DNA of 64,000 nucleotides from Oceanispirochaeta sp. (lineage in GTDB: Bacteria > Spirochaetota > Spirochaetia > DSM-2461): assembly GCA_963666275.2 (NCBI GenBank), contig CAXXOA010000001.1, forward strand, positions 1,440,001-1,504,000, written 5' to 3'. Under the pieces are notes generated by a model. The model was not told the DNA's origin. It worked only from the letters and a program-made list of their open reading frames with translations, and searched no databases. The position numbers and the translations under genes were made by a program. Position 1 is the first letter of the stretch; every line of letters starts with the position of its first letter. Shown in pieces: positions 42,680-47,117 of this stretch.

Positions 42680-43111
42680 ATGAATATTGGATTAATCGGT
42701 TATGCTGCGGCTCTTGGATTGGCTGGTTTTGGTTCTGCATTCGGTGCAGGTGTGGCAGGACAGGCTGCAATCGGTGCTTGGAAAAAGGCTTTTGCCAATA
42801 ACAAACCCGCTCCCTTTCTGCTTGTTGCGTTCGTCGGTGCTCCTCTGACTCAGACAATCTACGGATTCATCCTTATGAATCAGATGATTGCGGCTATTGA
42901 AGCCGGCGGAGCGACTCTGGCTCATCTGGGAATGGGAATCTTCGGCGGTCTTGCCATGGGTGCTTCCGCCTATGCTCAGGGAAAAGCCGGTGCCGGTGCT
43001 GCAGATGCCATGGGTGAAACAGGAAAAGGTTTTGTAAACTACCTGATGGTTCTCGGTGTTATCGAGACTGTTGCCCTGTTTGCCATGGTATTCCTGATGG
43101 GTGCCCTCTAA
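42680..43111 (+). CDS. ntpK: V/A-type ATP synthase subunit K (four-TM rotor subunit)
   Basis: Hydrophobic; PLTQTIYG, AYAQG, VIETVA; AAGGAG before ATG 42680. Confidence 0.94.
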   Translation: MNIGLIGYAAALGLAGFGSAFGAGVAGQAAIGAWKKAFANNKPAPFLLVAFVGAPLTQTIYGFILMNQMIAAIEAGGATLAHLGMGIFGGLAMGASAYAQGKAGAGAADAMGETGKGFVNYLMVLGVIETVALFAMVFLMGAL

Positions 43112-43145
43112 TCGCAATCTGATTATCTGTAAATAAACGGAATAA

Positions 43146-43180
43146 GGCTGCTTTCCCATTCGGGAAAGCAGCTTTTTTTT
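43146..43180 (+). terminator. Intrinsic terminator of the V-ATPase operon
   Basis: GGCTGCTTTCCC-ATTC-GGGAAAGCAGCT running into a T-tract. Confidence 0.9.
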
Positions 43181-43298
43181 GTTCAGAATTTTTTGAGTCT
43201 ATAAATGTTTTTTATTGTATTTACAGATACAATTCGGATAGGCATTCTAATCTATTTAGTATACATACATTTTCCAATAGGTGTGATAGGATCATTGC

Positions 43299-44183
43299 GT
43301 GATCTATAATTATGAAACAGCGGCTAAAAAATATAATTCAGGATCATATTACTTTAATGCAAGGTGGTATGATGCCGGGACTGGTAGGTTTATATCTGAA
43401 GATCCGGCTCGTGACGGTTCAAACTGGTTCATTTACACCTACAATAACCCATTGAAATTCACCGATCCAACAGGCCTCGCTGCTTATGATGATGCTCCGG
43501 ATATGTCCCTTTCAGATGAGGATAAGGAAGAGATTCGAGCAGAGCGGGAACAAAATCAGAATGATGATGGTGAAAATAAAAAGGATGCGGAAAAAAAACC
43601 TGATGAATTATTAGAGCAGTCATGGGGTGAATTCTTTGCTGATTCGATGGAAGAATTTGTTTCAACCTTTGATCATTATACAGATTCGTATAATACAGCT
43701 AGAAATGAAGGTTTAATTGAAGGAGCTAAACAATTTACAGGAATTACTAACGTTGGTGATGCGATAGAGACCTTTGATGAAATTGGTATAGCAATAATGG
43801 GAGCAGGTGGTGTTTCTTTTGCAGGTCAAGTTGCGGCTCAATTAGAAAGTGCTACATCATGTATGGGTGCAAAAGCTGGTGCAAAAATGACCGAGTTAGG
43901 CTTAAAAACCCCAATGAAAAATGCTGGTGCTGCTCAAACACCTCGTTATTATAATCCCGAAACAGGACGTTTTGCTACTTCAGAACTTGCTGAAAGCAGA
44001 AAACAGGATGCTTATTCATCAATTGGTAAATTTAGTCGTGGTGTTGCAGAGGGTTATTTAGATGAATCTACACCAACATCAGAAAGTATTGCACCAGAAC
44101 CACGTTCAAGGCCACAAGCCGCTGGGCAAGCTGTTGGAAGAGGAATTCACCAGCTTCAGACAATTATGAAGGAGATCTTTTAG
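43299..44183 (+). CDS. Orphan RHS repeat-associated core plus variable C-terminal (toxin-tip) domain
   Basis: YYFNARWYD..TGRFISEDPARDG.NWF.Y..NNPLKFTDPTG; no YD repeats upstream; AT-rich. Confidence 0.85.
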   Translation: MIYNYETAAKKYNSGSYYFNARWYDAGTGRFISEDPARDGSNWFIYTYNNPLKFTDPTGLAAYDDAPDMSLSDEDKEEIRAEREQNQNDDGENKKDAEKKPDELLEQSWGEFFADSMEEFVSTFDHYTDSYNTARNEGLIEGAKQFTGITNVGDAIETFDEIGIAIMGAGGVSFAGQVAAQLESATSCMGAKAGAKMTELGLKTPMKNAGAAQTPRYYNPETGRFATSELAESRKQDAYSSIGKFSRGVAEGYLDESTPTSESIAPEPRSRPQAAGQAVGRGIHQLQTIMKEIF

Positions 44184-44684
44184 GTGATAATTATTGTTAT
44201 TGCTAGTATAATATTGTTGCTTTTTTTAATGAATCGCTATTTTTTTAATAAACCTTATAAACATAAAAATATTGGACTATCACAGTTAGAAAAATATTTA
44301 ATGATTTTAAGGAATAGTGGTTATGATGGCGGTTTTATTATTATTGAGAATGCAGTTACAAAAGAATTTGTTCAATTTCAGAAACATATCGATTCAAAAG
44401 GAAATATAACCCTTAATTCATCCTTCTTTCCAGTTGATTGGAATATGAAGTATTTTGGAGCCATAAAAGAGTACTTAGAAGAACAAGATTTTGAATATGA
44501 AATTATTGAAGACGAGGATGGAAAAGAAAGCATTGAGATTTTCTGTAATGATGATTTGTTGCTATGCGTTAAGTTAGTTAAAGATATAAATACCAAAGTA
44601 TTTGGAATGAATAAAGATGGAATGTTATTTTCTATATGGTTTGAAAATGTTTGTGAAAAGGATGTTTTGATAACTACAAAATAA
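44184..44684 (+). CDS. Putative immunity protein with N-terminal TM helix
   Basis: GTG abuts the Rhs stop; AAGGAG upstream; AT-rich; immunity role inferred from position only. Confidence 0.6.
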   Translation: MIIIVIASIILLLFLMNRYFFNKPYKHKNIGLSQLEKYLMILRNSGYDGGFIIIENAVTKEFVQFQKHIDSKGNITLNSSFFPVDWNMKYFGAIKEYLEEQDFEYEIIEDEDGKESIEIFCNDDLLLCVKLVKDINTKVFGMNKDGMLFSIWFENVCEKDVLITTK

Positions 44685-44703
44685 TTATGACTCATAACCA
44701 TGA

Positions 44704-45911
44704 TGTACAGTGACGGTATTCACCTGACAGTTGGCTAAAAAATAGAGGTGGCCATCTCATCTCCAGAAGATATAATGATTTTACCACAAATTGTTATATC
44801 AGGAGGATTCAATGGCCACCAACAGGACTGTAGCACAAAAGGCTACACGCAGAAAGATGAGCATGCTTGAACTTGCAGAGGATCTAGGAAATGTCAGTAA
44901 GGCATGTAAGATCATGGGCTATTCGAGACAGCAGTTTTACGAGATCAGAAGGAACTATCAAACCTATGGGTCTCAGGGGCTGGTAGATAAATTACCTGGT
45001 CCAAGGAATCCACATCCCAATAGGGTCTCTGATGAGGTTGAAAGGGCTATTCTGGATTATAGCCTTCAGTATCCAACACATGGCTGTGTACGCGTTGCTC
45101 AGCAATTAGCTTTAAAGAGCATATCTGTAAGCTCAGGCGGCGTCAGAGGGGTCTGGATAAGGCATAACCTAGAAAATAAGTATCAGAGACTTCTTCGGCT
45201 AGAAGAGCATCAGGGAAAGAAGAAAATCAATCTAACTGAGGACCAGATCAGACTCCTTGAACGTTTTGATCCAGAGTTTAAAGAAAGACATATTGAAACC
45301 ACATGTACGGGAGAACTTGTTTCTATAGATACATTTATGGTCGGGACGTTGAAAGGAGTCGGTAGAGTATATTTGCAGACAGTTATTGATTGTCACAACC
45401 GGTATTCATGGGGACGTTTATATACAAATAAAATGCCCGTCACAGCTGTTCATGTTCTTAATAATGATGTTTTACCATTCTATGAGGAGCATGGAGTGAA
45501 GATTAAAACAGTACTTACCGACAATGGACGTGAGTACTGTGGAAGAGAAGATCATCATCCTTTCGAGCTCTTTTTGCAGCTGGAAGAAATTGAGCATAGA
45601 ACAACTAAAGTTCGTCGTCCCCAGAGTAATGGATTCGTTGAACGGATGCATAGAACATTACTTGATGAGCACTTCAGAATCAAAGGGCGAGAGAAGTTCT
45701 ATGAGTCAGTTTCAGAGATGCAAAAGGATCTGGATATCTACTTGAAATACTATAATGAAGAGCGTGCTCATCAGGGTAGAAATATGAAAGGTAGAACACC
45801 AAAGACAGCATTTTTTGAAGGTATTCAAGAAGAGCAAAAAAGCGGTAATCCCGCATAAGAAGTTTCATTATTCTTCTGGAGAGAGTGTCAGGTGAATACT
45901 GTCATTAAACA
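44704..45911 (+). mobile_element. IS481-family insertion sequence, 1208 bp
   Basis: TGT...ACA ends; 26-bp IRs at 44704-44729 and 45886-45911 (22/26 match); 7-bp direct repeat ACCATGA at 44697-44703 and 45912-45918. Confidence 0.92.
44812..45858 (+). CDS. IS481-family DDE transposase
   Basis: HTH NVSKACKIMGYSRQQFY; IDTF..G.LKGVGRVY, TDNGREYCG, PQSNGFVER; AGGAGG before ATG 44812. Confidence 0.93.
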   Translation: MATNRTVAQKATRRKMSMLELAEDLGNVSKACKIMGYSRQQFYEIRRNYQTYGSQGLVDKLPGPRNPHPNRVSDEVERAILDYSLQYPTHGCVRVAQQLALKSISVSSGGVRGVWIRHNLENKYQRLLRLEEHQGKKKINLTEDQIRLLERFDPEFKERHIETTCTGELVSIDTFMVGTLKGVGRVYLQTVIDCHNRYSWGRLYTNKMPVTAVHVLNNDVLPFYEEHGVKIKTVLTDNGREYCGREDHHPFELFLQLEEIEHRTTKVRRPQSNGFVERMHRTLLDEHFRIKGREKFYESVSEMQKDLDIYLKYYNEERAHQGRNMKGRTPKTAFFEGIQEEQKSGNPA

Positions 45912-46046
45912 ACCATGAGCTCACCTGCCCAACTGCTGAACAATTCGTTCCGGAACCGGTAAAACGGTCAGGTGCAGCGTTCTTGTTATGATAGGCATTA
46001 TATTTTTCGCCGGAATGACTTTTTCCTGGTGAAGAATTTTTTCCGG

Positions 46047-46180
46047 GGTAGTGTCAAATATCTTTCGCAAATTTCAAAGACCTCAATCATCTTATCCAGT
46101 TACTACAATACATTCTCGTCCGTATTAAAGCCTATTAGAAGATTCATATTCAGATACTTTCTTTCACTCCAGGTCGATCC
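46047..46180 (-). pseudogene. IS256-family remnant: transposase C-terminus plus right terminal IR
   Basis: Minus strand reads GSTWSERKYLNMNLL...stop (46103), then TTTGCGAAAGATATTTGACACTACC; both resemble IS256 3' ends as recalled. Confidence 0.6.
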
Positions 46181-46209
46181 GTTCTGGCATCAGTAAAAAC
46201 GGTCAGCTG
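46180..46209 (+). repeat. Degenerate copy of the right half of the attC-like site
   Basis: CGTTCTGGCATCAGTAAAAACGGTCAGCTG versus CGTTCCGGAACCGGTAAAACGGTCAGGTG at 45946-45974. Confidence 0.6.
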
Positions 46210-46261
46210 ATTTTCCTATAAAAAAAGCATTCACTTGAGTAGCTTGAGAAGTCTTCTGATT

Positions 46262-46618
46262 TCAAATAAAGCGCCCGGGTGATACCTGAAAGATTTCAGC
46301 TAATTGATGTGCTGTTGCCTTACTGATTCCTCTGGTTCCACGTTCCATGGCAGAAATATTCTGCTTTGCCATTCCCAGTTTCTCTCCGAGCTGAGTCTGG
46401 CTCATTCCATTTCTTTTCCTGTAGCGTTTAAGAACCTGCCCGGGAGTAGATTTATTCGCCTTTTCCCTGTACCACGCAGTTTGAGTGATATCTACAAGCT
46501 CTTCATCATTATTAATAATTTCAACATTATGGTAGTTGTCAGTAAGAAATTTCAGGAGTTTTTCCGGAATCTCTTCAGCATTTATTTCAATATGGGGCTT
46601 TTTCACGACTGCCAGCAT
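46262..46618 (-). CDS. XRE/HigA-type HTH antitoxin
   Basis: LKRYRKRNGMSQTQLGEKLGMAKQNISAMERG HTH; overlaps the toxin 3' end. Confidence 0.85.
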   Translation of the reverse strand: MLAVVKKPHIEINAEEIPEKLLKFLTDNYHNVEIINNDEELVDITQTAWYREKANKSTPGQVLKRYRKRNGMSQTQLGEKLGMAKQNISAMERGTRGISKATAHQLAEIFQVSPGRFI

Positions 46619-46859
46619 AATAAACCTCCAATTCTAATTGGTCATCTGATATAATTCTCCAACAGGCAACCCATCTGTAATCCAAATGGCAATGGAATTC
46701 AGTCTTGTCGTTGTTCAAGGGACTGAAATTCTTCCAACCTTTCTGGATTGGTCCTGTCGCTCTCAAATCTTCTACAAGGTCAAAAAAGTCATCTTGCCGA
46801 GCGGAAGGCATCTTCTTCACATTTTTCAAGACTTTATTTTTTATCTCAACCTTGTACAT
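46587..46859 (-). CDS. RelE/HigB-like toxin
   Basis: MYKVEIK.KV.K...K.P..., FHCHL..RWVACW, EVYYAGSREKAPY; toxin-first order with an HTH partner. Confidence 0.7.
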   Translation of the reverse strand: MYKVEIKNKVLKNVKKMPSARQDDFFDLVEDLRATGPIQKGWKNFSPLNNDKTEFHCHLDYRWVACWRIISDDQLELEVYYAGSREKAPY

Positions 46860-46865
46860 GTATAA

Positions 46866-46894
46866 ATAGTAATGCAAATATGATTACCTGTAAA
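46866..46894 (-). promoter_or_regulatory. TA operon promoter with overlapping palindromic operator
   Basis: Minus strand TTTACA-17 nt-TACTAT, 6 nt before ATG; GTAAT-N9-ATTAC at 46869-46887. Confidence 0.65.
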
Positions 46895-47117
46895 TGTTAA
46901 AAACTTTAGTTTATGTATTTTCTCTATGATAAAATCAGTCTTTCAGATTTGCCGGATTACCATTAGTATCGAAATCGGGTTAAAAATTTCATAACTTTGG
47001 TTCTGTTTCATCCTGCTGGTTACTCCAAAACCTTTGCATTCTTCCATTTCTATCAAGAAAAATACTCTTCTGTCTTTTTCCCTAATCCTCTATAATACGG
47101 TTCATAAGGATTTTAAT

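Follow-up and report, generated by a model that had tools for sequence, protein, structure and literature searches.

How the tips of polymorphic toxins are exchanged is an open question. For Rhs proteins, the available text of Jackson 2009 (PMC2935791) proposes displacement of C-terminal ends by homologous recombination via circles, with no co-occurring integrase, and that of Kirchberger 2017 (PMC5361080) reports no evidence for an integrase in effector-immunity arrays; both raise the analogy with integrons. In the integron recombination site attC, the extrahelical bases lie by definition on the R''-L'' arm, and moving them to the opposite arm shifted the recombined strand and the crossover box (Bouvier 2009, PMC2727003, accessible part). 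A literature search, thin in its coverage of subscription journals, returned no report of attC sites or integrons beside Rhs or immunity genes, and none of an element joining Rhs tips, a pair of Xer-like recombinases and a primase. Here we analyse such a locus within 64,000 nucleotides of Oceanispirochaeta sp. (the window; assembly GCA_963666275.2, contig CAXXOA010000001.1, positions 1,440,001 to 1,504,000 of the forward strand), where an orphan Rhs tip and a putative immunity gene are followed by an attC-type hairpin lying in inverted orientation. Inverted attC-like hairpins behind toxin-immunity pairs, here and in related genomes, suggest that toxin modules are swapped by site-specific recombination.

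The Rhs tip is a 294-residue open reading frame (ORF; 43299..44183, plus strand) containing the last core motifs and a C-terminal domain presumed to be an antibacterial toxin; it matches TIGR03696 at residues 4-60 (62.1 bits, cut-off 32.5). Directly downstream lies the putative immunity gene (44184..44684, plus strand; 166 residues, 26% GC). With a core C-terminal motif, a variable domain and a small downstream gene, the pair has the make-up of an orphan Rhs tip-immunity module. The labels toxin and immunity are given by position: neither ORF matched a Pfam family, Atlas matches of the tip (at most 0.82) are a lead only, and the immunity gene, for which no family was found, has two homologues at 65-66% identity and Atlas matches below 0.9.

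The hairpin is interrupted by an IS481-family element of 1208 bp with TGT...ACA ends (44704..45911, plus strand), which parts one box of the site from the remainder. Its DDE transposase (44791-45858) scores 258.5 bits against NF033577 (cut-off 224), every IS481 feature sought is present, and 7-bp target duplications lie at 44697..44703, spanning the predicted crossover, and at 45912..45918. Removal of 44704-45918 in silico yields an 85-bp site that starts 7 nt past the immunity stop at 44684, with outer boxes complementary at 7/7 positions, an AAC/GTT core and spacers of 5 and 6 nt; as the locus stands, the remnant retains the core triplet and the box pairs at 4/7. On the minus strand the restored site consists of an R' box (44692..44698, from the structural scan) and, beyond the insertion sequence, the rest of the site (45919..45991): the L' arm (45919-45929), a variable terminal structure, the L'' arm (45966-45978), the 6-nt spacer and the R'' box (45985-45991). 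Two unpaired, extrahelical bases, 45975 and 45968, stand 6 bp apart in the right arm. Both strands of the restored site fold as hairpins (z about -2 against 300 dinucleotide shuffles); folding energy alone is modest evidence, and it is architecture, homologues and covariation that set the site apart from chance. We discarded a 25-codon ORF on the minus strand across the site because it is frameshifted in another copy and not kept by other hairpin types. Targeting of hairpins by the IS481 element was likewise rejected, since the flanks of a second, identical copy (C1:538339-539546, also with a 7-bp repeat) show no such hairpin.

Two approaches identify the site as attC-like and fix its direction. 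A structural scan paired 11/11 L-stem positions on the minus strand and found no match on the forward strand even at threshold 7. A covariance model was trained on 24 attC sites of the array type and on no tip-linked ones, although one of the 24 closes an Rhs cassette in another genome (G010, below). With filters off its single match in the 64-kb window was this site, on the minus strand (22.4 bits, E 0.007), even though one box is cut through by the insertion sequence; the spacer has one inserted base in this match. The model found no attC upstream of the Rhs tip in the window. The window site and 21 of 22 selected loci scored at E <0.1, each on the strand predicted for the class. Only the minus strand combines an unpaired central spacer with a pair of extrahelical bases that are separated by 6 bp on the R''-L'' arm. 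Since the arm carrying both of these bases is the one farther from the immunity gene, the window site is an inverted attC-type site. By analogy with the available data of Bouvier 2009 (PMC2727003) and Nivina 2020 (PMC7439510), crossover is predicted between 44697 and 44698, within the box that adjoins the immunity stop; the hairpin would therefore not be the immunity gene's own attC. An earlier note on this DNA had restored the same 85-bp site with its 7-bp outer boxes and 5- and 6-nt spacers by removing the IS481 element, which our in silico removal confirmed, and had called the architecture that of attC, which the scan and the model, applied to the IS-free locus as that note had proposed (E 0.007), bear out on the minus strand only. 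It had correctly seen extra sequence in the right arm, but counted one base where there are two.

The window site has relatives. Its right part found DNA-search matches in 7 of 38 family genomes, strong only in the window genome, G009 and G011, and behind Rhs tips there are several hairpin types with unrelated loops and one common frame. Among 20 aligned sites 95% of cells were paired, with two-sided changes in 8 of 18 pairs; slid controls gave 27-55%, and are lenient in that the structure was derived from those same 20 sequences. A covariance model built from this alignment (R1) matched in 22 of the 38 family genomes; its window match is not independent, because close copies of the window's hairpin type (type A) are in the training set. 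We therefore also consider a model-free scan of 80 tips from fetched loci, from which 9 with <1.8 kb of downstream sequence were dropped, leaving 27 genus tips (close to the 33 matches) and 44 tips from other genera (a partial set, partly picked by model matches). A site lay within 2.6 kb of 20 of the 27 genus tips, 19 of them with an inverted site first, kin among them not being independent; the background was 6 of 600 random windows and 12 of 800 shuffled windows. In the window genome all five Rhs tips (5/5) have a site. A few bases at most separate the site from the immunity stop, and in some copies the two overlap; many copies are followed by a T-rich run, and several are truncated, degenerate or split by insertion sequences.

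While the tip-linked sites share the attC frame, they form a class apart from those of the host arrays. In a relaxed scan of 23 array loci, all 26 distinct array-sense sites had an AAC/GTT core and the first extrahelical base at +9; the same scan placed this base, a G, at +10 in 22/22 genus tip-linked sites. A stricter-core scan of arrays gave 36/38 at +9. The window site, at +10, thus falls outside the host-array class (+9, 5/5 spacers). Among 57 distinct model-found sites, a set biased towards the training class, 33 have AAC/GTT, 10 AAG/CTT and 9 AAT/ATT cores, 4 are mismatched and 1 is mis-cut by a base; the R boxes pair at 7/7 in 40 of them. Only the first core base covaries, and both extrahelical bases, the stem and the unpaired spacer are kept across unrelated loop sequences. 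We dropped 7/7 R-box pairing as proof of intact, circle-type sites: with one box common to most modules, composite sites would pair too. For IntI1 the first core base need only match between partners (Frumerie, PMC2811028, available text). A one-step apical shift of both extrahelical bases increased recombination threefold for one synthetic attC, while two more gained nothing further from it, according to the accessible part of Nivina 2020 (PMC7439510), whose fig. S5 bears on the exact numbering of these bases. Judged from IntI1, an IntI-type enzyme could accommodate both the +10 position and the variable core base. We file the tip-linked site as a variant of attC, new in its class. Model R1 matched in 1 of 150 genomes sampled from the rest of the phylum, beyond the family (stricter filters, 36 candidates scored per genome), and the exact +10 pattern occurred at 8 loci in 185,579 genomes, seven in spirochaetes and one in an Omnitrophota genome with no Rhs tip seen, with no match in viral contigs. 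The class is narrow and lineage-specific; within this spirochaete family, its sites form the right-hand limit of Rhs tip-immunity modules.

What accompanies the hairpin from locus to locus is the downstream DNA and not the immunity gene. Inverted sites of the genus gave 46 pairs with hairpins at least 88% identical; in none of these (0/46) were 60 nt on the immunity side shared, and in 17 the far side was common. Conversely, one identical immunity end is followed by a type B hairpin in the window genome and a type A hairpin in G011, and eight near-identical type B hairpins stand behind eight different immunity ends. Identity was profiled over 47 pairs from 25 sites, which are not independent. 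To the left of the site it was about 0.35; it reached 0.83-0.87 over the outer two bases of the box and was mostly near 1.0 inside, fading slowly on the far side. Homologous recombination between tandem element bodies would keep hairpin and immunity gene together, which is not the pattern seen.

At its other end the module begins at a sharp junction in the Rhs core (43347..43360, plus strand; YYFNA codons), presumed to be the att core of an integrative element. Orphan tips with unrelated upstream DNA begin at YYFNARWY codons in several loci, including position 43347 in the window; other tips retain a longer core. Similarity of the window core to other tips sets in at this junction. Many tips follow two Xer-like recombinases in an element that comprises tip, immunity gene, site, variable toxin-antitoxin (TA) pair, HTH, ParA, CHC2-Toprim primase and the two recombinases. 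Tandem arrays of such elements with different tips occur in the window genome (G000), G009, G011, G015 and G016, with same-facing sites and TA cargo that differs between copies; in G016, copies lie inside a full-length rhs gene. One tandem Xer-pair/CHC2 primase/ParA element occupies G000:C2:1-12000 and C3:1-6200 (L042, L043). The element recombinases score 89 and 103 bits against TIGR02249 (cut-off 265) with a gap at the IntI-specific insertion, and so do not class as integron integrases. A search for them returned 5 metagenome loci and none in viral contigs; with the query used they were not found in the near-complete, site-bearing genomes G002, G008 and G010. Displaced tips gain an element-end start codon about 29 codons upstream of the junction, and may thus be expressed as short proteins.

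An intact intI lies in the window genome about 420 kb from the module (390 bits against TIGR02249, cut-off 265), with a cassette array. In G010 the first cassette, ending in a canonical attC, is an Rhs tip with its downstream gene in antisense orientation. It immediately follows an attI-like sequence that resembles the one in the window genome, and about 24 nt lie between the stop and the crossover; a second G010 Rhs module has the same attC in another array fragment. It follows that an Rhs module can be an integron cassette, and with the same antisense arrangement. The window module differs in its second boundary, since it has a single model match and its left edge is the Rhs-core junction rather than an attI or attC. 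Several further features of the integrons were recorded. The chromosomal integron of the window genome (G000:C1:1032000-1064710; L040, L041) has many attC sites cut by antisense group II introns with RT genes, and intron interruption of attC sites also occurs in G009 (L081). A solitary canonical +9 attC stands far from this integron, 7 nt behind a 385-residue ORF (G000:C1:1290216-1290316). In the G020 array (L089) about ten near-identical 135-bp attC sites are spaced at about 399 bp, which suggests tandem cassette amplification, and in G008 (L045) an Rhs tip-immunity pair with an inverted +10 site directly follows the last visible attC of an integron array.

The architecture and orientation of the sites, their association with tips, the sharp junctions at both ends of the module, the host intI and the tandem same-facing elements are observed features. 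We propose that they reflect exchange of Rhs toxin tips by IntI crossover at the hairpin together with integration of the element at the core, a reading to which we give a probability of roughly 0.55. The gene-sense strand of the site would fold, and the crossover, in the box beside the immunity stop, would be made by an integrase of the IntI type, probably the host enzyme in trans. The element would integrate at the Rhs-core junction and displace the resident tip; recombination between two same-facing sites would then excise the element body and the displaced tip-immunity pair while the incoming pair stays, and hairpins and bodies would become re-paired with new toxin-immunity pairs. A more specific form, in which the element installs the tip, host IntI acting on a private +10 class excises the displaced pair, and GTT, CTT and ATT cores are exclusive channels, we hold tentatively, at less than an even chance. 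If it is correct, the channels limit which modules swap and keep some of them from attI.

Several observations weigh against exchange by IntI. No recombination event, circle or empty product was observed. The identity step falls at the outer edge of the box and so does not locate the crossover, and some different-hairpin pairs have the far flank in common from its first base (10/10), which implies exchange at the far box as well. In other genera the orientation of sites differs, with a site at 11 of 44 tips and 9 of these forward. The +10 sites are absent from arrays and give no sign of traffic with them, and no cassette arrays have built up at tip-linked sites. We did not find intI in the site-bearing genomes G014, G017 and G035, and it has an internal stop in G010 and G011; the G010 cassette itself uses a +9 attC and a different Rhs subfamily. 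Finally, full-length rhs was not seen in the window's genome (longest frame 450 residues), and the proposal does not account for the arrival of a module lacking the element body in the atpK-ispG gap.

Four other explanations deserve comparison. The inverted reading assigns the hairpin to the TA side, and it could be the attC of TA cargo cassettes dropped by IntI at a secondary site, with tips moving only by the Xer-pair element or homologous recombination. At L056 and L073 the R'' box does follow the ends of the TA genes by 16-18 nt, TA modules sit between divergent sites at L061 and L073, and the cargo varies among element copies. Yet one hairpin type can stand ahead of different TA families, mostly at a distance of hundreds of bases, the +10 class is missing from arrays, and the immunity-side box is a near-perfect complement (7/7 in 40/57), unlike a random secondary site; we consider this account unlikely, though it is the strongest of the four. 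A slightly weaker candidate is that another tyrosine recombinase, the element's Xer-like pair or the host's XerC/D, acts on the hairpins, which would explain both the geometry and the variable core base, and would suit a class distinct from host arrays, located inside an element and present where intI is broken or not found. In integron integrases the IntI-specific insertion contacts the extrahelical bases of attC; the element recombinases are without it, yet both extrahelical bases are conserved, and sites persist in G002, G008 and G010, where the query used found no element recombinase.

It is improbable, to our mind, that the site is a relic attC captured once by an ancestor of the element and now inert, or an RNA hairpin between convergent immunity and TA transcripts, with immunity genes changing by other means. 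Such a relic fits the truncated, degenerate or IS-split copies, the T-rich run after many of them and the lack of accumulating arrays; it fits poorly with compensatory changes that preserve stem, unpaired spacer and the two extrahelical bases across unrelated loops, none of which a terminator needs, and with the eight type B hairpins behind eight immunity ends. The geometry of the earlier note, in which the immunity gene or the tip with it is a sense-oriented cassette ending in this attC, has the position of the site within a few bases of the immunity stop on its side, as well as the hints of far-box exchange and the forward sites that follow immunity genes in G021, G022 and G036. We rejected it as very improbable: the window site has no forward-strand score, no attC match lies upstream of the tip, and same-hairpin pairs never share the gene side (0/46), so that hairpin and immunity gene do not co-segregate. 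Nor is the 5' boundary unidentifiable, as that note had it; the left edge is a sharp junction in the Rhs core tied to another element, not a lost attC. Its broad idea that IntI links to Rhs diversification survives in the exchange we propose. Several of the follow-ups it had suggested turned out in its favour, with an intact intI in the genome, relatives of the site in family genomes and association with Rhs modules (20/27 genus tips against 6/600); the outcomes it had named as grounds for abandoning the idea (no score or bottom-strand hairpin, no relatives, no association) did not arise.

The module lies in an insert between atpK and ispG (approximately 43180 to 47055); in 5/5 congeners examined atpK is directly followed by ispG. 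A terminator-like hairpin closing the V-ATPase operon (43146..43181, plus strand) marks the approximate left edge, as judged from its sequence and the congener comparison. The best explanation is a module without element body in the atpK-ispG gap, its site later split by IS481. Because no full-length rhs was found in the genome, the main present role of the module may be to provide immunity or a place for the element to land. Behind the hairpin lies a conserved sequence (45997..46046, plus strand) that other Rhs loci have after hairpins of types A, B and C, and a HigBA/RelE-like TA pair (46262..46877, minus strand; HTH_3 and a weak YafQ-type match) forms the cargo on the hairpin side; its homologues adjoin sites in L056, L109 and L123. 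A lone R-box-like heptamer (46989-46995) stands upstream of the TA pair near the right edge, possibly the remnant of a second site; neither covariance-model search found it a partner. An Rfam scan of 43000-47100 gave just two chance-level matches.

Variation among the sites extends beyond the orphan modules. Type A copies at G000 C1:1792671-1792750 and G011:C1:177-257 are cut short at almost identical positions, where they directly adjoin the end of a HigBA-like pair. An AAG/CTT-core site (G000 C1:2183586-2183646) and a degenerate type A site (C1:1669744-1669860) follow gene runs without a TIGR03696 match, one of which holds a 1053-residue ORF of no NCBIfam family and a sulfatase-modifying-factor-like lipoprotein; a second polymorphic family may thus use the same sites. 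Divergent site pairs about 35-830 bp apart, often with different core bases, occur in L059, L060, L061, L064, L073, L138 and L147 and sometimes flank a TA pair, possibly as an invertible or insulated cargo slot. An array of about 18 Rhs matches in G036 (C2:136000-202000) has just a few tips with forward AAT/ATT-core sites.

Looking forward, both ends of the module are defined junctions and one is attC-like, so that a site-specific route is directly testable by standard integron assays. If exchange by IntI is correct, the activity of integron integrases extends beyond cassette arrays to another mobile element. The class also displays natural attC variants, in core bases and in an extrahelical shift, that the available texts of PMC2811028 and PMC7439510 describe only as engineered mutants. 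The compensated change of the first core base recalls the GTT-variant attC and attI sites of Frumerie (PMC2811028), and the position of both extrahelical bases, one step apical, recalls the shifted synthetic attC of Nivina 2020 (PMC7439510); those, as far as these texts go, are laboratory mutants tested with IntI1, whereas the spirochaete sites are natural and known from their sequence. Compared with the attC sites of Bouvier 2009 (PMC2727003, accessible part) and of the host arrays, the tip-linked sites have the same paired AAC/GTT R boxes, unpaired central spacer and variable loop, and the same two extrahelical bases 6 bp apart on one arm, G then A/T. They differ in being inverted relative to the adjacent gene, in the +10 instead of +9 position, in length (mostly 54-87 bp against mostly 97-135 bp in host arrays), in their natural AAG/CTT and AAT/ATT cores, and in occurring singly or as divergent pairs, not in arrays. 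Sites of the attC type that lie away from an integrase are known as CALIN. The tip-linked sites resemble these in their distance from intI and in the TA genes adjoining them, but are fixed behind toxin-immunity pairs, with a geometry of their own, inside another mobile element. With the system of Jackson 2009 (PMC2935791), as its available text presents it, the locus shares orphan tips with downstream immunity-like genes and displaced tips behind full-length rhs; in contrast to it, many spirochaete tips share one starting codon and run up to an attC-type box, with recombinase genes alongside.

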